DNA of 64,000 nt from a phage. The position numbers were made by a program, and so were the translations under genes. The first letter of the stretch is position 1, and each line of letters opens with the position of its first letter. The stretch lies in the sequence record PX104378.1. The stretch is one strand, 5' to 3'. The notes beneath the pieces are model-generated. The model worked only from the letters and a program-made list of their open reading frames with translations. It was not told the DNA's origin and did no database searches. Below are positions 1 to 64,000 of the stretch, in pieces.

Positions 1-2235
1 GATGATGTTATCGTTACGCCTAAAAAGTTAAATGATTGTGTTGCTACCGAAGCCCGTCGTGGTGTGATGGAAATTGCAACTCAACATGAAACCAACGAAG
101 GTTTAGACGATACTCGCGCAATAACTCCTAAGAAGTTAGAAGAACGTCGCGCGTCCGAGGATCTTGCTGGTATTGCTGAAATTGTTCAGGTAGGCGGTAA
201 TGCTGCCGCTCGAAGGGGTGAAGCTGGCACGGGGATCTATAACATAAACGACCACGCTAAAATCGTTACTCCGCAAAACATCAACGAAGTCAAGGCGACA
301 GAAACTTCCCGTGGTGTTGGCTATCTGGCAACTGACGCGGAAGTGCAAGGGGCTACAGAATCAACCCCGCAAGATGCTTTACTAATCACGACTCGCACGC
401 TAACGAAACGTACTGCTACAGAATCGCGTACTGGTATCGCTGAAATTGCAACTCAGGAAGAAACAAACTTAGGTCAGAGTGATAACCATATCATCACGCC
501 TAAAAAGCTGCATACTCGCCGCGCAACGGAAACTTTACATGGTTTAGCAGAAATTGCAACTCAGCCGGAATTTGACGCAGGTCGTGACGATGCTCGCATT
601 TCTACCCCATTGAAGATTAAAACCTTCTTTGAGAATGCACAGCGTTTGAAAGTAGATCCGACTCAGGGGCTTAACCTTACTGGTGATTTGTGGCAAGGTA
701 TCATGATCAGCGGTCTGGATGCAACCGAAGACACAAAAGGTGTCGCTAAAGTTGCTACTACTCAGCTTACGGATGCTGGTCAAGATGATACTACAATCAT
801 TACTCCTAAAAAGCTGCAAGGCAAAAAGGCCACCGAAGGTAAAGAAGGTATTATCCGAGTTGGTACTCAAGCCGAAACCGTGGCTGGTGTACTGGCTAAT
901 GTAGCAATTTCTCCGAAGAACTTCAAATATGTTGTTCAGACAGAGGATACATGGAAAGCAACCGAAGCGCGTCGTGGTTTCTTGAAAGTTGCTACTCAGG
1001 AAAACTGTTTTGTTGGTGATAATCTGCAAGGTTCTACTCAAGAACTAGGAAACTACCAGCATGACGGAATTGCTGTTACCCCGAAAGGATTAAACTACGC
1101 ACTTGCTAATTTCTTACCTAAGATGGCAACCGCTCAGAATAGTTTGAAATTGGGTAACGTAGAGGCCGCTAAATGGGCGCGTAGAGACATTGACCAGACC
1201 ATTGAGAGCAATTACACGTTTAATAAAAACGTTAACGTGAAGGGCGATTTAGAGTGCTTAAAATCTGGTTCCTTTGAAACTCTGTTTGTGACTAAGAACT
1301 CGACTGATGATCCGAGTAATGGTCATCTGGTGTTGGGTGAGCGTGGAGTTGACGGTCACACCGGAATTACTCTGCACGGCACAACCGCATCGGAAGGTAT
1401 GGAAAACTCATGGTCTATTATCGTTGGTGGTACTGGAACAGCGCAAGTTGTTGATAGTGACGCTATCGCTTTCGGTAAAATCAATGATGGTGGATTCGTC
1501 GAGCATTACGCCTTTGCTATGGAACACAATGGCGACGCGGCAGCATATAGAGACTTTATTGCAGGTCGTAACCTGTATGCGAAACAAGGCGGTTTATACA
1601 TTGTTGACCAGTCTAATCCGGCAATGACTCGTTCCCCAGATGGTATGCTGAATATCGGTCACGGTGGAAGTGTTAATATCAAGGCAGGTTATCAAACGTT
1701 AACTACAGAGATCGCCGGACAGAAATATCAGATCGTACACGCAGGAAACGCAGACGAAGTTCTTAACCGTCAGTTTGTTAAGAATGCTGGCGATACAATG
1801 GTCGGTAAGCTGATTATGGATAATGCGCCTATTGTTTCTGTTAAGCATGAAGCTAGCGCGGCAACCGCTCCGGCAATCGGTAACATCGGTTTCTGGAATA
1901 TGCGCGTTACTACCCAGAACATCAAAGAAACTTATCCAGAGAAGAAAAACGGTACTCTGATGCAATGGGGTACTGACGAGGACGGGCTTACCCAGCTTTG
2001 GTCCCCTGATGGTACTCATAAACATTATATCCGTTCCGGTACTGGTGGTCAATGGACCGCATGGGGTGAAATTTACACCAAACAGAATAAGCCTACCGCT
2101 CAGGAAATCGGGGCAGTAGTTGCAGAAGGTGGTTTAATGAACTCTATGACGGTTCGTGATTGGATCAAAGTTGGTAATGTTAAAATCATCGCCAATAATC
2201 TGACTCGTACCGTAGACTTTATCTGGGAAGACTAA
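1..2235 (+). CDS. 34: Proximal long tail fibre subunit gp34 (5'-truncated by window edge)
   Basis: Frame-1 ORF open from nt 1 (>=744 aa, no start in window). Tandem ~45-aa repeats (ITPKKL..ATE..G[IL]AEIATQ), fibre motif YTKQNKPTAQEIGA; lies upstream of 35-36-37-t as in T4. Confidence 0.6.
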   Translation, partial: DDVIVTPKKLNDCVATEARRGVMEIATQHETNEGLDDTRAITPKKLEERRASEDLAGIAEIVQVGGNAAARRGEAGTGIYNINDHAKIVTPQNINEVKATETSRGVGYLATDAEVQGATESTPQDALLITTRTLTKRTATESRTGIAEIATQEETNLGQSDNHIITPKKLHTRRATETLHGLAEIATQPEFDAGRDDARISTPLKIKTFFENAQRLKVDPTQGLNLTGDLWQGIMISGLDATEDTKGVAKVATTQLTDAGQDDTTIITPKKLQGKKATEGKEGIIRVGTQAETVAGVLANVAISPKNFKYVVQTEDTWKATEARRGFLKVATQENCFVGDNLQGSTQELGNYQHDGIAVTPKGLNYALANFLPKMATAQNSLKLGNVEAAKWARRDIDQTIESNYTFNKNVNVKGDLECLKSGSFETLFVTKNSTDDPSNGHLVLGERGVDGHTGITLHGTTASEGMENSWSIIVGGTGTAQVVDSDAIAFGKINDGGFVEHYAFAMEHNGDAAAYRDFIAGRNLYAKQGGLYIVDQSNPAMTRSPDGMLNIGHGGSVNIKAGYQTLTTEIAGQKYQIVHAGNADEVLNRQFVKNAGDTMVGKLIMDNAPIVSVKHEASAATAPAIGNIGFWNMRVTTQNIKETYPEKKNGTLMQWGTDEDGLTQLWSPDGTHKHYIRSGTGGQWTAWGEIYTKQNKPTAQEIGAVVAEGGLMNSMTVRDWIKVGNVKIIANNLTRTVDFIWED

Positions 2236-2240
2236 TTAAA

Positions 2241-2257
2241 GGGGGGCGAAAGCCCCC
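2241..2257 (+). other. GC-rich stem-loop with GAAA tetraloop between 34 and 35
   Basis: GGGGGC-GAAA-GCCCCC directly after the 34 stop; no T-run. Confidence 0.4.
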
Positions 2258-2269
2258 TATGGGGTTATT

Positions 2270-3409
2270 ATGACACAAGAGATAGAATTACGCAATACTG
2301 GAATTAAGTTTGCGCATTTCGACGAAGACTCTGCGACATTTACCAGCATTTCAGAAAATAACTCTGTAATGTATAAACTTGAGGTTAGAGGATCTAATGC
2401 GGATTCTACCAAACCAGCAAGGATTAGATTTAATGGAGTGGAGATCGTTGGCACTGGCTATGAAAATGGCCTAAATTTTAAAGTTCTTACTCCAACTGGA
2501 CAATTACACGAAGAAAAGGTATTCTATGGTCGCGGTGCTGTTTTGGCAATGCGTGATTATCTTTCTTTGCTGAAAGGTGATTATATCATTGCGATGGCAA
2601 CGCATGGAGAATTGTTTGCAGATCCGGTAAGTGATGATGTATTCTCTAAGCTGGGATCTGTATCATTCCCGAATCACATTTTGTTACAGCAAATGCCTCG
2701 TGTATCATATGCAGCAATTTATTCTACGAAAATGGGTAAAATTGTTTGTGAGGGTATGCAAGCGACCCACGGGGAAGGGCAAGATTCATCTATACAAATT
2801 GAGAAAGTCTATGATACTATAGATGATCTTGCTATAACAGGAACACCACAACGATTTTTAGATTATCCGGTTGAGTATGTTAGCGAAGATGCCGAACATT
2901 TCGAGCTAATACAATGGCCTCATGATGAGATCAGCGCACCACTTGAAGATTTTAACATAAAGACAGGTGACAAACTATCAATATCTTTTGAATTGTTCCG
3001 TGATAGTGCCGCAGCCGCAGCCAACGTAACAGCGCGTTTCTATCACAACTACTTCACCGATGGACAATATAAAACTGGTGTTCGATACAATGCCAGCAAA
3101 AAAGATCAATGGGAAAAGTTTGAAGCCGTCTATACCGTACCGGAAGGAGTTGATAGTGTTACCACTGGTTGCGTTAGATATCCAACCAACTCAAATGAAG
3201 GTATTGTTAAAGTTAGAAACATACTAATAACGCCGATCAGTGGAGTTGTCAAAACGACTGGTCCTACTTCCTTTGGTGTTAACGGTGTTAGAACAACTCA
3301 CATTCAGGATAACGGTGATTTTACTAACCCTGTAATGAGTCTTCTTAAACTACCCAGAGACAATAAACATATCACATCCAACAACTTTAAAGAGTTCGAT
3401 GTTGATTAA
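2270..3409 (+). CDS. 35: Long tail fibre hinge protein gp35
   Basis: 379 aa (T4 gp35 372 aa); position between 34 and 36; followed by hairpin+T-run terminator. Confidence 0.55.
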   Translation: MTQEIELRNTGIKFAHFDEDSATFTSISENNSVMYKLEVRGSNADSTKPARIRFNGVEIVGTGYENGLNFKVLTPTGQLHEEKVFYGRGAVLAMRDYLSLLKGDYIIAMATHGELFADPVSDDVFSKLGSVSFPNHILLQQMPRVSYAAIYSTKMGKIVCEGMQATHGEGQDSSIQIEKVYDTIDDLAITGTPQRFLDYPVEYVSEDAEHFELIQWPHDEISAPLEDFNIKTGDKLSISFELFRDSAAAAANVTARFYHNYFTDGQYKTGVRYNASKKDQWEKFEAVYTVPEGVDSVTTGCVRYPTNSNEGIVKVRNILITPISGVVKTTGPTSFGVNGVRTTHIQDNGDFTNPVMSLLKLPRDNKHITSNNFKEFDVD

Positions 3410-3419
3410 CATTTTTAAC

Positions 3420-3450
3420 AAGCCGATCCATGTGGTCGGCTTTATTTTTA
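3420..3450 (+). terminator. Rho-independent terminator after gene 35
   Basis: AAGCCGA-tccatgtgg-TCGGCTT hairpin followed by TATTTTTAT. Confidence 0.65.
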
Positions 3451-3569
3451 TACAGTTGGTTAAAATGTAACCAAAACGAAGAAAGATCTTTAGAATATAG
3501 AAAATTTGTTTCGGTTAAAAATTAGTCAGTGCCTCCGGCACGTCGCGAAGCGATATTTTGTTAACATTC

Positions 3570-3577
3570 TATAAATA
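3570..3577 (+). promoter_or_regulatory. T4-type late promoter (TATAAATA) upstream of gene 36
   Basis: Exact TATAAATA ~35 nt upstream of the gene 36 ATG. Confidence 0.6.
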
Positions 3578-3610
3578 CTCGGAACTATAACTAATTTTTG
3601 AGGTTACTTT

Positions 3611-5101
3611 ATGGCAGATTTGAAACATGGATCTACTGTAGGTGGATCTCCCATTTGGACGCAAGGAAACTTGACGATCCAGCCAGCGGGGGACCAGCTT
3701 TTCTACAAAGGTCATAAAATCTATACCGCTTTTGATAGACCTTCGGCTACCGATTTTGATGCTGTTAGTGCATCCGAAGGTGGCACATTTCAAAAGCAAG
3801 TTCATTTCGAGGAAGGTTTAAGCGTAGGTAGCGCATCGGCTGGAGAAACCAAAAAGAACGGTATCTTTAAAGGCCAGAGCGATGCCGCTAATTTTGACGG
3901 CGTAAGCTGGGGTTTGCATTCATGGAAGTCAATCGGCTTTGTTAATGCCCGTGATGGCGTTATAATGGCGTATATTGACACCACAACGGGCGAATTTAAG
4001 TCTAAAGGGACTATCGAAGGGACAACCATTAAAGACACTGGTCAACGCGTCTATAGCCCTGTTAATAAACCAACGAATAATGATTTGGATTTAGTTTCCC
4101 GTCGCGGTGATACTCTCACAGGAACATATAATTTAAACACTGTCACTGTTAAACTATCGGTTGATTCGAAATTAATTGCAAGGGAACGTGATTTAATTAA
4201 TTTTGATGCGACTAAGATCTATTATGGTAACGTTCTTGACACGTTGGTCTTCCGAAGTAAAGATGAGCCTACCATTTTTGTTAATGGCAAAGAAGGTCGT
4301 TTTTATCACACCAACAATAAACCAACTAAAGCCGATGTTGGACTAGGCAATGTCACCAATGATGCACAGGTTAAACGTGCTGGTGATATTATGGAAGGTA
4401 ACTTGCAAGCGCCTAGAATGTTGGCGACAAACGATCCTGCTGGTCCTAATGAATTGGTTCGTTTGAGCTACTTTGAGAAAAAATCAATGGTAGCAAATCC
4501 AACAATCATTGGAAACGTTGATTGGAACACTCTTATTAATCGCGGTATCTATCGTGTGGAAAATGCTGGATCAGGTACTAATAAACCGTCTGATAGCTAT
4601 TATAACGGCGTTTTGATGGTATATCGCCCAGAAGATGCGGTCGGTACTCGTCGAATTGTTCAGGTTTATTATCCTGAATCTATTGACCATCCGATGTGCT
4701 GGCGTTCGTGTTCTAATGAATCATGGACTGCATGGAACTATGTAGATCACCGTAAATTAGCCGATATTCGCTATGTTAACGTAACTGGCGATACCATGAC
4801 AGGACCGTTAACTGTTCCTGCTGCAAATGGCGTTAGAACAGCTAAAACTAACTATAACGGGGATAACTGTTATGCGGCGTTAAGCGGTGCTGATGGCACT
4901 GCTATGATTCACCGCATTAGTGATATTAAAGGGACCGAAAAGCTGGGGATCACCCACGACTCAAAGGTCGTGTTTTTCCGTTCTAGAAACAATACTCAAA
5001 CCGTGGACCGCTATCAGCTTTATCATGAAGGCAATAAACCTACTCCGGCTGATGTTGGAGCAGTTCCACTTAATGCGGTGATTGATTTTGGTACTTTCTA
5101 A
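3611..5101 (+). CDS. 36: Long tail fibre distal connector gp36
   Basis: N-terminus MADLKHGSTVGGSPIWTQGN matches T4 gp36 N-terminus; TATAAATA late promoter and GAGG RBS upstream; KPTxADVGA fibre motifs. Confidence 0.7.
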   Translation: MADLKHGSTVGGSPIWTQGNLTIQPAGDQLFYKGHKIYTAFDRPSATDFDAVSASEGGTFQKQVHFEEGLSVGSASAGETKKNGIFKGQSDAANFDGVSWGLHSWKSIGFVNARDGVIMAYIDTTTGEFKSKGTIEGTTIKDTGQRVYSPVNKPTNNDLDLVSRRGDTLTGTYNLNTVTVKLSVDSKLIARERDLINFDATKIYYGNVLDTLVFRSKDEPTIFVNGKEGRFYHTNNKPTKADVGLGNVTNDAQVKRAGDIMEGNLQAPRMLATNDPAGPNELVRLSYFEKKSMVANPTIIGNVDWNTLINRGIYRVENAGSGTNKPSDSYYNGVLMVYRPEDAVGTRRIVQVYYPESIDHPMCWRSCSNESWTAWNYVDHRKLADIRYVNVTGDTMTGPLTVPAANGVRTAKTNYNGDNCYAALSGADGTAMIHRISDIKGTEKLGITHDSKVVFFRSRNNTQTVDRYQLYHEGNKPTPADVGAVPLNAVIDFGTF

Positions 5102-5105
5102 TTTT

Positions 5106-5130
5106 AGCGGGGATTATCTCCCCGCTTTTC
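5106..5130 (+). terminator. Rho-independent terminator after gene 36
   Basis: AGCGGGGA-ttatc-TCCCCGCT followed by TTTTC. Confidence 0.6.
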
Positions 5131-5171
5131 TAAATAATATTATTCTAATAACCGTTTAAGGATTTTATAAA

Positions 5172-7940
5172 ATGGCAGATTTAAGCAGAATCCAATTTAA
5201 ACGCACTAGCACTAAAGGTCGTCGACCTGATGCTGGTACGATGAATCCGGGTGAGTTGGCGATCAACTTAGCCGACCAATATTTGCTTACTAAAAACGAC
5301 TCAGGTGCTATTATCAATTTAAGTTGTCCTCCGGTGTATGACCGCGATGTTACAATGGCTGGTAAAGTTAAAGGTAATAATTATATCTTAAGTAAAACCG
5401 CTAACTATCTGGAAGATCAGACAGCGCGAGATCTTAACTACTTTGGTGCTTTCCGTACCAATGGTCTTGATGGTTTTCTAGAACTAACGCTAAACGTTCC
5501 TCATTCTTCTGGTGTTCAGCATGGTCGAGGATTTACTTTCCAGTATGGTCACACTGGATCGCGAGTAGAAACCTATGGCTATAATAGAGAAGGTCAAAAA
5601 GCATTCAGCTATAAAATGTATCACGAAGGTGATAAACCAACTCCAGGAGAATTGAACGTTTATAGCAAACAAGAAGTAGATAGAATGTTTGTTAAGAACG
5701 TTAAACTTGCTACAGTTCCTGGTGATACAGTTGAAGGCTATTTTAAATTAGCAACTGCAATGATTCCACAAAATGGTCGTAGTGTATTTTTCCGTATTCA
5801 TGGTGGTAACGGATATAACGTTACTGCATACGATCAAGTTGATATTGTAGAAATTGTTATTCGCAGTGGAAATAATCGCCCTAAAGGTGTTAACGTTATT
5901 GCATATCGCCGAAATACAAACAAATCATTTGATGTTTTGGCTGTTAATACTTCTGGTGATAACTATGATATCTATGTGAAATATCAGCGTTACACTGATA
6001 ACGTTATTGTTGAATTTGGTAAAAGTGTTGATGTTAATCTGGTAGTTCATGACGTTCCAGATTTTGTTGCTGAACGTCCTGCTGGTGATAATGTTATTGG
6101 CGGTCGCGCGGTAACTCTTTTCAACACCGAAAATAAACGTGGTGTGTTGAGTTTTGACGATAACACACAAAATAGCTATGATATTGTTCACTTGAGTAAT
6201 GATAAAGGTACTGGACGAAAATATATTCGTAAATTCCGTAGCAACTATAATGAAATGATCTGGCATGAGACTGTTCAAGGTTCCAGTTATCGTCTGGCTA
6301 CTGGTAGCACTGATGCTCAGGAAATTATGACTATTGAATCTAGTAGCTCAATTGCTGGAACTCATAAAGGTAATATTATTTCTGGTCGTATGCTGTTAAA
6401 TGGCGGATCTAATGCCATTACACTACGCCGACCTGCTGGTCAATCTAATCATATTGCGTTTCAAGATAATCGTACTGGAGATATTACCCGTCAAGGATGG
6501 ATCGGTTATGCAAACGCCGATACTGACGTTTTTGAATGGTATAGTGATGTAGGTGGCAGTTCTATTCGTCAACATATCGACGGACAGATCGAATTTCAGA
6601 CAGGTAACATGAAGCGAGTTTATACCAACGGTCAATTCATTTCTTTATATGCTGATGGCTTCCGTACTGTATATGGTAACTATGGATCATGGTGGCGAAA
6701 TGACGGTAGTAACGTTTATCTGATGAGCACAAAATCAGGCGACGCTATGGGTCCGTGGAATACCTTTAGGCCGTTCATATACAGTCTCGCCAATGGAAAC
6801 GTTACTCTAGGTGGTAGCGATGCTGGCAATCATTTAATGCGTCTCAATAATGAAAATCGTCAAGTAGAAATAAATGCAACAACACATTTAGGGTCTCGAT
6901 TATATTGGGAACGTAGCGAAGGATCGGCATCTAGATTTTTTATTAAGAATTGGGGTAATGGAACTTCTCGCGCTCAAGTGTGGGAACTTGCTGACGAGAC
7001 AGGTTATCATGTATATTCTCAGCGAAACGACGCGGGTGTTCTTCAATTCCGTACTGCTGGTAATTTTGAGACTGGTGGTGATGCTCAAGTAAACGGGACT
7101 TTACGTGTCACCAATGTTCTTCGAACAGATAACCAAATTCAGATTTATCGCGATAACAACAAAGAACTCTGGTTTAAGGATGCTAATGGTACTAACCGTG
7201 GTGTTATCTGGGGTGATAGCACAGGTCAAATGCGCATTCGAAACTATAACAGCGGAGAATTTGACCATGTTTTCCAGACTGGTATGATTCGCTTAGAACG
7301 TGGGTATGCAAACGGTAGCGACCGTGGTTTGATTCGCGGAGAAGTACAAGGTGGTGCTTGGTCAGAATGGAAAACTCGCGCTGCTGGCTTATTGGTTGAC
7401 TGTCCAGCTGCTCAAACTTCCGCATATAACGTATGGAAAGCGACCAAATGGGGTTTAGACCACATCGCGGCAATGGGCGTTCATGTTCCTAGTGGTGTTA
7501 TTACTAATGCTATGGCACGTCTTCATATTCATACCACAAACTTTGACTTTAACGCATCTGGTGATTTCCAAGCTGGTCGCAATGGTAACTTTAACGATGT
7601 TTACATTCGCTCTGATGCTCGCCTGAAAATCAATAAGGAAGAGTATAAGGAGAATGCCACCGATAAAGTTAATCGCTTGACGGTATACACCTATGACAAG
7701 GTTAAATCTTTAACCGACCGTACTGTCATTGCTCATGAAGTCGGTATTATTGCTCAGGATCTTGAAAAAGAATTGCCGGAAGCAGTAACAACTTCTAAGG
7801 TCGGCGATCCTGATAAGCCAGAAGAGATCTTAACAATTTCTAACTCTGCTGTCAACGCTCTTTTAATTAAGGCGTTTCAGGAAATGAGCGAAGAATTGAA
7901 AGTCGTTAAAGCTGAACTAGCGGAACTTAAAAAGAATTAA
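5172..7940 (+). CDS. 37: Distal long tail fibre gp37 with C-terminal intramolecular chaperone (S74-type) domain
   Basis: N-terminus MADLSRIQFKR..GELAINL matches T4 gp37; C-terminal ~110 aa carry the SDxxxK autoproteolysis motif (YIRSDARLKINKEEY) typical of endosialidase/T5 pb1 chaperone domains. Confidence 0.8.
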   Translation: MADLSRIQFKRTSTKGRRPDAGTMNPGELAINLADQYLLTKNDSGAIINLSCPPVYDRDVTMAGKVKGNNYILSKTANYLEDQTARDLNYFGAFRTNGLDGFLELTLNVPHSSGVQHGRGFTFQYGHTGSRVETYGYNREGQKAFSYKMYHEGDKPTPGELNVYSKQEVDRMFVKNVKLATVPGDTVEGYFKLATAMIPQNGRSVFFRIHGGNGYNVTAYDQVDIVEIVIRSGNNRPKGVNVIAYRRNTNKSFDVLAVNTSGDNYDIYVKYQRYTDNVIVEFGKSVDVNLVVHDVPDFVAERPAGDNVIGGRAVTLFNTENKRGVLSFDDNTQNSYDIVHLSNDKGTGRKYIRKFRSNYNEMIWHETVQGSSYRLATGSTDAQEIMTIESSSSIAGTHKGNIISGRMLLNGGSNAITLRRPAGQSNHIAFQDNRTGDITRQGWIGYANADTDVFEWYSDVGGSSIRQHIDGQIEFQTGNMKRVYTNGQFISLYADGFRTVYGNYGSWWRNDGSNVYLMSTKSGDAMGPWNTFRPFIYSLANGNVTLGGSDAGNHLMRLNNENRQVEINATTHLGSRLYWERSEGSASRFFIKNWGNGTSRAQVWELADETGYHVYSQRNDAGVLQFRTAGNFETGGDAQVNGTLRVTNVLRTDNQIQIYRDNNKELWFKDANGTNRGVIWGDSTGQMRIRNYNSGEFDHVFQTGMIRLERGYANGSDRGLIRGEVQGGAWSEWKTRAAGLLVDCPAAQTSAYNVWKATKWGLDHIAAMGVHVPSGVITNAMARLHIHTTNFDFNASGDFQAGRNGNFNDVYIRSDARLKINKEEYKENATDKVNRLTVYTYDKVKSLTDRTVIAHEVGIIAQDLEKELPEAVTTSKVGDPDKPEEILTISNSAVNALLIKAFQEMSEELKVVKAELAELKKN

Positions 7941-7982
7941 GGAAAACTCCCAGGGAAGGGAAACTACTAAGGAGAAACGGCT

Positions 7983-8222
7983 ATGGTCTATAATATCGTC
8001 ATTGGTGCTTTGTCTAATTTCGGAATGAAACTATTGTCAAAGTTAATTAGTGAAAAGATGCTCACTAAAATTTTCTTCTACTGCGCTCGTCGTCTTGCGG
8101 CTTATACCAATACGCCAATTGATGATCGTTTCGTGGAAGAACTTTATAAGGAGTTTAATAAAGATCAGTCAGAAGATAGTAACGAGCAAGATAAACCTAG
8201 TGATAGTCAAGTACCTAAATAA
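7983..8222 (+). CDS. Hypothetical 79-aa protein between 37 and t
   Basis: Strong RBS AAGGAGAAACGGCT-ATG; hydrophobic N-terminus, acidic C-terminus; no recognisable homolog. Confidence 0.45.
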   Translation: MVYNIVIGALSNFGMKLLSKLISEKMLTKIFFYCARRLAAYTNTPIDDRFVEELYKEFNKDQSEDSNEQDKPSDSQVPK

Positions 8223-8255
8223 GAGTACACTGTCATAGTTATCTTAGGGCATTAT

Positions 8256-8912
8256 ATGCAAGTTTCTGAAAAAGAGAAAGACTTTGCTATCTCAAATGTC
8301 CTGCGCGCTATTTTCACAACTAAAAGCACGGAGTTGCTCGTACTTCGTGTTTTTGCTGCCGTCGTGTTGTCCATATTAGCATTTGTCGTTTATAGTAAAA
8401 ACGAGTTATTTGCGCTTTATAAAGAGACTCGTTATGAGACTTATGCTCACGTTCTCCAGGTAGAGAAAGACCGCAATTTTGATAATGCAGCACAGGAGCA
8501 GTTACAGATAGTTCATGTGTCGGCTGATGCCGATTTTTCTGCTGTTTTTAGTTTTCGTCCGAAAAACCTAAACTATTTTGTTGATTTGGTGGCATATGAA
8601 GGAAAGCTACCGCATACAATTGACGAAAAGAATTTAGGCGGATTCCCTATCAATAAAACGAGTGAAGAATATCGTAGGCATCTTTTAGGTAAATCCTATT
8701 TTACTGATAAAGATTTCCAGTATATTCCATCGAGGGAGAAAAAATTAGAGAATATCGATATAGGGTTTATGTATTCTTGTCCTATATTCAATCTCGATAA
8801 TGTCTATTCTGGTAGTATCGCCATTGCATGGAGGAATAAACCAGATATTGACATTGAGAATTTAGATACTCTTTGCAATCAATCTGCCAGAATCCTCGGA
8901 AGGATCAGATAA
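8256..8912 (+). CDS. t: Holin t
   Basis: 218 aa, identical length to T4 holin; conserved blocks LEQLQIVHVSADADFSAVFSFRPKNLNYFVDLVAYEGKLP and MYSCPIFNLDNVYSGSIAIAWRN; C-terminal RILGRIR. Confidence 0.9.
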   Translation: MQVSEKEKDFAISNVLRAIFTTKSTELLVLRVFAAVVLSILAFVVYSKNELFALYKETRYETYAHVLQVEKDRNFDNAAQEQLQIVHVSADADFSAVFSFRPKNLNYFVDLVAYEGKLPHTIDEKNLGGFPINKTSEEYRRHLLGKSYFTDKDFQYIPSREKKLENIDIGFMYSCPIFNLDNVYSGSIAIAWRNKPDIDIENLDTLCNQSARILGRIR

Positions 8913-60770: not shown

Positions 60771-61011
60771 AGTTTACCCATTCAACAAGATCTTTACCTA
60801 ACTCGAAAGCCCATTCTCGGTCTTGCTTTACGTTTTGTAGGTATGGACTTTCCGACACTCTACGAAGTGATGTTGTCGTAACAAGAATGATCCCAGGAAT
60901 GGTCGGATGTTCCTTTCCATATACAATAGGACGCGAGTCACTATCAATACCCTGTAAGAAAGTGTATCCTGAATCACTTAGAATCATATACATTTTCATT
61001 TCACACATCAC
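60670..61011 (-). CDS. Hypothetical protein
   Basis: 113-aa ORF. Confidence 0.4.
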   Translation of the reverse strand: MMCEMKMYMILSDSGYTFLQGIDSDSRPIVYGKEHPTIPGIILVTTTSLRRVSESPYLQNVKQDREWAFELGKDLVEWVNCEDKNQRNHERKIARIAQRRKLNEIKNRILQSM

Positions 61012-61265
61012 AGCTTCCTCAACCAGTTATTAAAGCGAGCAAACCATGATGCTTTTCGTGCTTCTTTTACTTTATGTGCACGAAAACCACTGAAACACCA
61101 TTCATAATCATCACCGAAACATGATTCAACAGGAACACCCGCATTTCGTAGTTCTCTGGTCTTTATCATGAATCCTTGACATAAGGGGCGACCTTCAACA
61201 ATGATAGGAAGTTTAACTTTTTCCATGAAAGTATACCCAGCACGGTCAATAATTTCAATCTTCAT
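61008..61265 (-). CDS. Paralog-family protein (KIEIID...FM..VKLPIIVEG)
   Basis: 85 aa; N-terminus shared with 61284..61481 and 63607..63828. Confidence 0.5.
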   Translation of the reverse strand: MKIEIIDRAGYTFMEKVKLPIIVEGRPLCQGFMIKTRELRNAGVPVESCFGDDYEWCFSGFRAHKVKEARKASWFARFNNWLRKL

Positions 61266-61283
61266 AATATAATCCTCAATTAG

Positions 61284-61481
61284 TTATACTGCCCATGCTT
61301 CATTTGCACGAAAACACCATTCATACTCAGGAAAATAACCTTTAATTGGTACGCCAGCTTTTTGTAGTTCCTGCGTTTCTACAAGATAATCAAGCCCATA
61401 TCGACGACCTTCCACAATAATAGGAAGTTTAACGCCATTCATGAAAGAAAATCCACCATCATCAATAATTTCAATTTTCAT
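61284..61481 (-). CDS. Paralog-family protein (KIEIID...FM..VKLPIIVEG)
   Basis: 65 aa; MKIEIIDDGGFSFMNGVKLPIIVEGR. Confidence 0.5.
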   Translation of the reverse strand: MKIEIIDDGGFSFMNGVKLPIIVEGRRYGLDYLVETQELQKAGVPIKGYFPEYEWCFRANEAWAV

Positions 61482-62726: not shown

Positions 62727-62760
62727 TAAAAACAAAAAAGGCTATCCAGAAGGATAGCCC
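62727..62760 (-). terminator. Rho-independent terminator after the glycine-rich gene
   Basis: Minus-strand GGCTATCC-ttct-GGATAGCC followed by TTTTTTGTTTTT. Confidence 0.65.
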
Positions 62761-62766
62761 ATAAAA

Positions 62767-63552
62767 TTACACGCGAGCACCGTAGATCGTGCCTACTTTA
62801 TCCCAGCGTGGAGCATTACCAGTAACAGCCTTACCAGCCGCACCACCAGAGTGAACAGTTCCTCCAGTACCACCTTGAATATATGAAGATTTGCCAGCAG
62901 ATCCCAAATCTCCACCATTTCCTCCATAGTGAACCCCAGAAACAGTGCCTTTACCTGGGGCAGAAATTGTACCAGCAGATGCTGCCGCTGCGCCGCCTCC
63001 TGCCTTACCAGCCGCACCAAATGGACGGCCTCCGCCGCCGCCAAATATCATATCCATTTGAGGGAAAGGATGGTATCTAGCACCAGCACCGCCACCACCA
63101 CCACCACCAATAATACCATTATTGTTTATTCTTAAACGAGTTCCAATTCCGTTATTTATTGCATTTCCTCCTGCTCCGCCAGCAGAGTTACTTCCGCCAT
63201 TTCCTCCCCGACCTAATACATGAACACCAGAGTTAATAATGAGTGTTACATATTCGTTTGTTAGTGAGCTAGGGAAATCAAGACAAGGAACGCCAGTAGA
63301 ATGGGAAACAATATTACCGGTGATAGTAATTACTACCGGAGTAGATCCTTGTGCTTTCATCCAGTTAATAAGAGTGTCTTTATTGTAAGAGTTACTAGCG
63401 CCAATGCTATAATGAATCTCTTTAGAACGTCCGACCATCGCTGACATATACGCCGGACGACCTAAGCGTACAGCTTGCATTGCGGCGCTCATCCACCGTT
63501 GACCAGTCTCAGCAACAGCCGATGATCCGACCCAACCTGCTTTAATTGCCAT
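62767..63552 (-). CDS. Glycine-rich repeat protein
   Basis: 261 aa; C-terminal ~150 aa dominated by GGxGG/GGNGG runs; followed by hairpin terminator. Confidence 0.55.
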   Translation of the reverse strand: MAIKAGWVGSSAVAETGQRWMSAAMQAVRLGRPAYMSAMVGRSKEIHYSIGASNSYNKDTLINWMKAQGSTPVVITITGNIVSHSTGVPCLDFPSSLTNEYVTLIINSGVHVLGRGGNGGSNSAGGAGGNAINNGIGTRLRINNNGIIGGGGGGGAGARYHPFPQMDMIFGGGGGRPFGAAGKAGGGAAAASAGTISAPGKGTVSGVHYGGNGGDLGSAGKSSYIQGGTGGTVHSGGAAGKAVTGNAPRWDKVGTIYGARV

Positions 63553-63606
63553 AAAGTTTCCTCACAAGAAAAGCCCCATTTAAGGGGCATTGATTAATAA
63601 TATTAC

Positions 63607-63828
63607 TTAGATGACCTCTGCTTCACCATTCAGGAAGAAAGACCATGTTTTGTTAGGACAGCGAAGCGCCCATGATTCAGCAGTTTTAACACCAGCTTCG
63701 AACAATTGACGGCTGGTTACTTTAGCCATACCATCTTCGATGGCAACGTTTTCAATAATCATCGGGTACTTAGCGCCACGCATGAAACCGAAGCCAGCGG
63801 AAGATTTGATAATTTTAACAGTTGCCAT
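63607..63828 (-). CDS. Paralog-family protein (KIEIID-type)
   Basis: 73 aa; MATVKIIKSSAGFGFMRGAKYPMIIENV resembles 61008..61265 and 61284..61481. Confidence 0.5.
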   Translation of the reverse strand: MATVKIIKSSAGFGFMRGAKYPMIIENVAIEDGMAKVTSRQLFEAGVKTAESWALRCPNKTWSFFLNGEAEVI

Positions 63829-63867
63829 TTTTGATTCTCCTAGAAAGTGTATCTCGTTTCGATGTGT

Positions 63868-63899
63868 GTATTATGCAATAACACCGGATCACTGTCAAC
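63868..63899 (-). promoter_or_regulatory. Early promoter with conserved 5'UTR cassette
   Basis: TTGACA-~20nt-TAATAC ACACATCGAAACGAGATACACTTTCTAGGAGAATCAAAA-ATG. Confidence 0.4.
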
Positions 63900-64000
63900 A
63901 CTTTCTAAGAAAAATTTTAAATTAATCGAATATAGCCCAGAATTTCAGCACCTTTAGCCAGTCCTAAAACTTCCCATTCAAGGTCGCCGTAGTCATAATT

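Follow-up and report, generated by a model that had tools for sequence, protein, structure and literature searches.

A mosaic gene for a probable gp38 tail-fibre adhesin, far from g37, in an RB49-like (Krischvirus) coliphage

The window, the whole stretch of 64,000 nucleotides of phage DNA analysed here (sequence record PX104378.1), carries a long-tail-fibre operon at its start and a gene for a glycine-rich protein, g38, close to its end (Table 1). The start codon of g38 is preceded by the Shine-Dalgarno sequence GAGGA (63563-63559). Glycine accounts for 8.8% of residues 1-113 of the product and for 33.8% of residues 114-261, in which alanine reaches 13.5%. The first-pass annotation had described an ordinary N-terminal region followed by a glycine-rich C-terminal one, and this description holds, with lengths of 113 aa and 148 aa. 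Twelve runs of at least two glycines are present, including G7 (149-155) and G5 (171-175). At the DNA level, the only array detected with TRF was a 29-nt GGN run (63081-63109), and the remaining repeats are dispersed copies of 12-21 nt. A tandem DNA repeat with slippage-type length variation was thereby ruled out. The alleles of g38 differ in length (258-263 aa) through indels in variable segments, with an unchanged number of repeat copies, and the repeat-length variation between isolates, suggested as a check in the first-pass annotation, was not found among them.

Three antisense or alternative-frame ORFs overlap g38. In 500 shuffles of synonymous codons, a fraction of 0.16-0.83 reached the observed lengths, and these ORFs vary from relative to relative. 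An overlapping or antisense gene was ruled out by this null. The ORFs are by-products of GGN/GCN codons, in line with the first-pass annotation, which had taken the antisense ORF for an artefact of the repeat.

Small genes of the early type surround g38 in a block bounded by tk/rI and dam, and the gene order at this locus matches that of RB49, JSE, GEC-3S, and kaaroe. The 2 kb around g38 share 90-97% DNA identity with the near relatives (97% with Brandy). Three paralogous small genes of an uncharacterised family, PHROG 7345, are also found there, all on the minus strand (63607-63828, 61284-61481, and 61008-61265; blastp 5e-22 to 6e-5 between copies). One copy is located immediately 5′ of g38 and two are located 1.3-2.5 kb 3′ of it, and g38 and its downstream neighbours therefore lie within an array of paralogues.

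The tail-fibre operon has the same order as in RB49 (g34-g37-t synteny). The distance from g38 to the end of g37 is 55.6 kb, and the slot next to g37 is taken by an unrelated 79-aa ORF, as described for RB49 (PMC3157838). A displaced g38 is a published trait of RB49-like phages and of the genus Krischvirus (PMC3157838; preprint 10.64898/2026.04.02.716166). Adjacency to g37 is typical of the T-evens and is no defining feature of the gp38 family.

Table 1. Positions of genes, domains and regulatory features in the window
Feature	Position	Strand	Details
Long-tail-fibre operon (3′ part of g34 through holin t)	64-8912	+	Start of the window
g35	2270-3409	+	
g36	3611-5101	+	
g37	5172-7940	+	922 aa; Pfam Peptidase_S74 at aa 814-873, Gp34_trimer
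79-aa ORF between g37 and holin t	7983-8222	+	PHROG 402, uncharacterised family; T-even g38 slot
Holin t	8256-8912	+	Pfam Phage_holin_T 1.7e-61
Perfect sigma-70 promoter TTGACA-16-TATAAT	62722-62695	-	12/12 matches; for downstream early genes
Intrinsic terminator, 6 nt after g38 stop	62729-62760 (hairpin 62760-62739)	-	9-bp stem and T-run, -15.5 kcal/mol
g38	62767-63552	-	ATG start, 261 aa
Glycine-rich motifs alternating with hypervariable segments, receptor-specificity domain (by homology)	62833-63213	-	aa 114-240
Recombinant specificity cassette, T-even (RB18/AV115/Bas43) type in Krischvirus backbone	62849-63208	-	Gene nt 345-704, aa 115-235
Linker and N-terminal part of central beta-helix (by homology to S16 gp38)	63214-63432	-	aa 41-113
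N-terminal attachment domain, docks on gp37 trimer tip (by homology)	63433-63552	-	aa 1-40; PF21721, alignment
Antisense/alternative-frame ORFs over g38	62883-63080, 62929-63135, 62793-63044		
Upstream hairpin GCCCC-TTAAAT-GGGGC, then TTTTCTT	63573-63588	-	20 nt before ATG, -11.2 kcal/mol
TCTAAGTAATATTATT, late-promoter-like octamer (two mismatches to TATAAATA) and 8 nt common to g37 upstream region	63596-63611	-	

The search against Pfam assigned the g38 product to GP38 (PF05268; 2.8e-70, 237 bits at a cutoff of 25), with the whole profile covered by aa 45-261, and to Gp38_N (PF21721; 4.3e-18, 65.5 bits at a cutoff of 25) at aa 1-40, and gave nothing beyond these two families at E up to 1. 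PHROG 2056, annotated as 'tail fiber protein; host specificity', matched at 1.8e-99. Among structures in the PDB, phmmer detected gp38 of Salmonella phage S16 (6F45_D; 2.8e-50, query 1-259 against 1-247 of the 249 residues of the chain), followed by a PP01 gp38 fusion (9v85; 2.6e-31). Homologues labelled as adhesin or receptor-recognising protein were found with tblastn in 810 phage records. The closest is gp38 of Enterobacteria phage Brandy (Brandy49, MZ504876), with 99.2% amino acid identity, and those of kaaroe, W115, MIZ2/3/6, and FL37/38 share ~96%. The near relatives, where looked up, belong to Krischvirus (RB49-like phages), and the phage of the window is an RB49-like coliphage of this genus.

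According to these matches, the product of g38 is almost certainly gp38, the monomeric adhesin which caps each long tail fibre of RB49-like coliphages. All features tested at the level of sequence for the adhesin-type gp38 family were present, and the protein is an ordinary, already known adhesin, with nothing new in kind. The first-pass annotation had mentioned fibre and beta-helix proteins among its leads, and PF05268, PF21721, 6F45_D, and PHROG 2056 confirm this one. It had also held that its reading of the gene would be refuted by a clear homologue among the known structural proteins of related phages, and the match to the gp38 family is of this type.

The partner protein gp37 is encoded in the window as well. 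Its C-terminus matches S16 gp37 (6F45_A, 1.6e-4), and its Peptidase_S74 domain is a self-cleaving chaperone domain, from which cleavage is predicted. Several homologues, including those of JSE, GEC-3S, RB18, and AV phages, are labelled 'distal long tail fiber assembly catalyst' or 'tail assembly protein', and PHROG 1121 matches the first 86 aa of the protein, as could be expected of a T4-type gp38, a non-structural chaperone for gp37 assembly which stays outside the virion. We consider this function very improbable, as the full-length match is instead to the adhesin-type gp38, bound to gp37 in the crystal 6F45, whereas T4 gp38 is very unlike the S16 type in sequence (PMC6851490). Moreover, the gp37 of the window has an intramolecular chaperone domain of its own, and host-range mutations of RB49 fall in this gene (PMC9569957). 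In some records, the 'assembly catalyst' label results from a wrong transfer of the name of T4 gp38.

The structure of the S16 tip provides the model for the adhesin. In S16, one gp38 caps the trimeric gp37 and docks with an N-terminal helical attachment domain via conserved tryptophans. This domain is joined by a short linker to a beta-helix of five rings, from which two long excursions emerge; in these, the glycine-rich motifs make up ten polyglycine-II helices, stacked in three layers as a 'polyglycine sandwich' (PMC6851490). The architecture of glycine-rich motifs and variable segments had been described before (PMC3157838), and receptor binding has been proposed to take place at the distal end, in the short hypervariable loops (PMC6851490, PMC3157838). 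In the attachment domain of the window gp38, W7 and W20 are conserved. At Tyr35 (63448-63450, minus strand), in the third helix, S16 and the T-evens have a Trp, and this one aromatic position, Tyr instead of Trp, was counted against the adhesin reading. From the alignment we infer which Trp residues of S16 correspond to the positions of W7, W20, and Tyr35. The presence of Tyr35 in Krischvirus gp38s may reflect co-adaptation to the Krischvirus gp37 tip.

The backbone of aa 41-113 is 89-100% identical across Krischvirus and T-even relatives. Alignments of eleven and of four gp38s show no variation in the glycine motifs, and the substitutions and indels are concentrated in the segments between these. 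The G7 run aligns with S16 151-GGGGGGGG-158, in helix 3. Since the glycine runs align with polyglycine-II motifs of S16, the glycine region would be a rigid scaffold and no flexible linker, and the motifs are predicted to pack as a polyglycine-II sandwich; this fold is derived from the 44-49% identity to S16 gp38. A glycine-rich toxin or bacteriocin-like protein, or a flexible linker or translocation protein unrelated to the virion, an analogy drawn in the first-pass annotation, has the composition in its favour (34% Gly in the C-terminal 148 aa) and is nevertheless hardly credible, considering that Pfam gives GP38 and Gp38_N only (E up to 1), that the runs align motif by motif with ordered helices forming a rigid sandwich in S16 gp38 (PMC6851490), and that strictly conserved motifs with variation between them are the reverse of a low-complexity linker.

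The mechanism proposed for the adhesin is based on the solved S16 homologue and on published work on T2, T6, and RB49. The gp37 chains would trimerise and then cleave off their own C-terminal chaperone domain, and the N-terminal helical domain of gp38 would dock onto the exposed gp37 tip. The middle part and the extreme C-terminus of gp38 would build a small beta-helix, from which the glycine-rich motifs (aa ~114-240) would pack as a rigid three-layer polyglycine-II sandwich. The distal hypervariable loops between the motifs would bind the outer-membrane receptor and set the host range. In most T-even-like phages gp38 is the main determinant of host range, and it is a target for the engineering of therapeutic phages.

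The gene is a clean mosaic, with Krischvirus-type ends and a T-even-type middle. We compared 131 informative sites, at which the four Krischvirus alleles agree, the three T-even alleles agree, and the two groups differ. The window allele is Krischvirus-type at 56 of the 58 sites in nt 8-323, T-even-type at 58 of the 61 sites in nt 345-704, and Krischvirus-type at all twelve sites in nt 745-783. In the sliding-window comparison, identity to all Krischviruses is 90-100% in the flanks, at codons about 10-97, and over the last 27 codons, whereas the region 63250-62860 shares only 36-78% with the alleles of GEC-3S, SFHK24, Cognac, and JSE. The same region is 91-100% identical to Mosigvirus AV115 and Tequatrovirus RB18 in most windows, and 82-87% in two. 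In the protein, aa 98-232 share 96% identity with Bas43 and AV115, compared to 62-73% with other Krischvirus alleles. One breakpoint lies in the first glycine-rich motif (aa 108-115) and the other in the last (aa 235-249), which corresponds to the expectation of a published model, in which specificity is swapped by recombination between conserved motifs (PMC3157838).

All Krischviruses examined carry g38 at the same site, and the detected exchange breaks inside the gene, away from the flanking hairpins. The start of g38 (63530-63590, minus strand; mainly codons 4-5 and just upstream) occurs in two variants, MAIKA in the window, Brandy, SFHK24, and RB49, and MAISS in kaaroe, GEC-3S, Cognac, and JSE. 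These variants are independent of the grouping by cassette, which indicates another small patch of recombination.

Published work on RB49-like phages relates gp38 to the receptor. RB49 uses OmpA, and its spontaneous host-range mutants carry gp38 E230K; Brandy49, with a 'much more divergent' gp38, does not use OmpA, infects an ompA mutant, and its receptor was reported as unidentified (PMC9569957). FL37/38, with a gp38 96% identical to that of the window, are named in PMC12032242, the text of which gives no receptor for them. In the part of the supplements of preprint 10.64898/2026.04.02.716166 that was available, RB18, Kha5h, kaaroe, and Brandy were not found. The supplementary table of the BASEL collection gives Bas43 with Tsx, in a column read as primary receptor. 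As the cassette of the window is 96% identical to that of the Tsx-dependent Bas43, the nucleoside channel Tsx is predicted, with moderate confidence, to be the receptor of the window allele and of Brandy49. The assignment relies on one characterised relative (Bas43), and our confidence is held at this level because single substitutions in a variable loop can switch the receptor, such as Q206L from OmpF to OmpW (preprint 10.64898/2026.04.02.716166). The Brandy49/kaaroe-type allele is a chimera with a cassette matching that of a Tsx-dependent T-even phage, and this offers a directly testable receptor for Brandy49.

Hairpins flank g38 on both sides, and the record of GEC-3S annotates both as terminators. 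The terminator 3′ of g38 is kept in the relatives; GEC-3S has one A-to-G change in the stem, where a wobble pair remains. Together with the sigma-70 promoter at 62722-62695, the hairpin at 62760-62739 forms a cassette of the PeSL (promoter-early stem-loop) type (PMC2839356, PMC4122927). A second unit of this design is present on the minus strand at ~51920-51850 (about 51884), with a 9-bp GC-rich stem, TTTTT(T/C)GTTTT, and TTGACA-16-TATAAT as in 62760-62695. The hairpin 5′ of g38 is terminator-like for the upstream 73-aa gene, which has a promoter at 63898-63870. The stem of this hairpin is invariant in JSE, GEC-3S, and RB49, and evidence from covariation is therefore absent. The search of both hairpins against Rfam gave no match at E up to 1. 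A switch like those of T4 lysozyme and soc, in which the upstream hairpin would sequester the ribosome-binding site, is not supported, as folding of 63530-63640 gave no greater stability than that of shuffled sequences (z -0.17); its centroid leaves the Shine-Dalgarno of g38 unpaired.

Neither a sigma-70 nor a canonical late promoter was found between the upstream hairpin and the ATG of g38, an interval without room for a sigma-70 promoter. The claim that g38 has its own terminated transcript is thus half supported: hairpins are present on both sides of the gene, and a promoter of its own was not found. The search for the late promoter TATAAATA with zero and one mismatch on the minus strand of 63553-64000 gave no match upstream of g38, where the best candidate is TCTAAGTA, with two mismatches. 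The only late promoter of RB49 predicted nearby (Nolan et al.) is located before rI, ~2.6 kb upstream of g38. With no late promoter of one mismatch or less upstream of g38 within the window, the late expression expected for a virion protein is left without explanation, which was also counted against the adhesin reading. The adhesin gene is a late structural gene amid early genes without a recognisable late promoter, and in this respect the transcription map of RB49-like phages is incomplete.

As another alternative, g38 could be a spare copy, displaced and either silent or poorly expressed, which serves as a reservoir of cassettes while the functional adhesin is encoded elsewhere. This reading would agree with the missing canonical late promoter, the terminator-like hairpin 20 nt 5′ of the ATG, and the distance of 55.6 kb to g37, and can nonetheless be given next to no credence, because tblastn gave one gp38 match per genome record among the records listed, the slot after g37 holds an unrelated 79-aa ORF, every Krischvirus examined has an intact g38 ORF preceded by a good Shine-Dalgarno, and the spontaneous host-range mutants of RB49 are changed in this very gene (PMC9569957).

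The 15-mer CTAA[A/G]TAATATTATT is common to the upstream regions of g38 (63610-63596) and g37 (5130-5144). The g37 copy reads TCTAAATA (5129) and is invariant in four Krischviruses; in RB49, TCTAAATA is part of a site which Nolan 2006 predicted to be a late promoter and which is also annotated in the record of this phage. The g38 copy (TCTAAGTA) has one more mismatch than the g37 copy, and g36 has TATAAATA at 3570, the only exact copy in the window. The 15-mer upstream of g38 may be a weak late promoter, in which case the 5′ end of the mRNA would contain the hairpin; this is a post hoc observation.

Several side observations concern these elements. A GC-rich hairpin and the shared 15-mer precede both g37 (5107-5146, plus strand) and g38 (63573-63611, minus strand) in opposite order, with the hairpin first before g37 and the motif first before g38. 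Between g36 and g37, the intergenic sequence hardly varies among four Krischviruses in which the coding DNA on either side shares only 81-88% identity with the window. In the window as a whole TATAAATA is depleted, with one copy observed compared to 5.9 +/- 2.3 expected, and with one mismatch 65 copies compared to 123 +/- 11 expected (100 of 100 shuffles had at least 65). This depletion is consistent with selection against stray late promoters. In AV115 and RB18, the g37-g38 intergenic region has a GC-rich hairpin, GAGGGC-TTCG-GCCCTC (-13.4 kcal/mol), directly before the ribosome-binding site of g38. Hairpins ahead of g38 may thus occur generally and perhaps serve to tune the gp37:gp38 ratio.

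A broader proposal, which we regard as speculative and rather doubtful, is that the Krischvirus adhesin gene acts as a semi-autonomous host-range cassette. The hairpin would block early read-through, and the degenerate late-promoter-like TCTAAGTAATATTATT would start a low-level late transcript with a 5′ hairpin, so that gp38 remains scarce compared with gp37. Cassettes would be exchangeable across genera by means of the hairpin/PeSL flanks and the conserved DNA of the glycine motifs, and the Brandy49-type allele would be a Tsx binder from T-even phages.

The best characterised counterpart of the adhesin is S16 gp38 (6F45 chain D), which can be aligned over the whole length and has the same three-part design of attachment domain, beta-helix, and glycine-rich motifs with variable loops. 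At 44-49% identity the two proteins differ in the variable segments, with a length difference of 7 aa in the last. Both phages also have gp37 partners of one kind, with the chaperone domain at the C-terminus. In S16 and the T-evens, g38 directly follows g37 (g37-g38-t in the T-evens), whereas in the window they are 55.6 kb apart. The arrangement directly 3′ of g38 (62760-62695) is that of the PeSL cassettes of RB49 and phi1 (Arbiol et al. 2010), in which a hairpin terminator is followed by a near-perfect sigma-70 promoter; unlike in these cassettes, the upstream hairpin of g38 has no promoter attached.

Among the T-even phages, RB18, AV115, and Bas43 TadeuszReichstein (Tequatrovirus/Mosigvirus) share the cassette, with 93-96% identity in protein (aa 98-232) and 91-100% in DNA windows. 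Their attachment domain (aa 1-40) is only 62% identical to that of the window and lacks a two-residue insertion, and the last 13 codons of the window gene are Krischvirus-type, unlike theirs. RB49, JSE, and Cognac49, with alleles binding OmpA or O-antigen, have the locus and flanks as in the window. Identity to the window gp38 is 90-100% over the first 97 aa and the C-terminal tail and only 62-64% in the specificity region, where the variable segments differ by two deletions (5 aa and 2 aa) and a 4-aa insertion. Brandy, kaaroe, W115, MIZ2/3/6, and FL37/38 have the locus, the neighbours, the hairpins, and the mosaic allele in common with the phage of the window, and the gp38 of Brandy differs from that of the window at two amino acids, A14S and H84Q.
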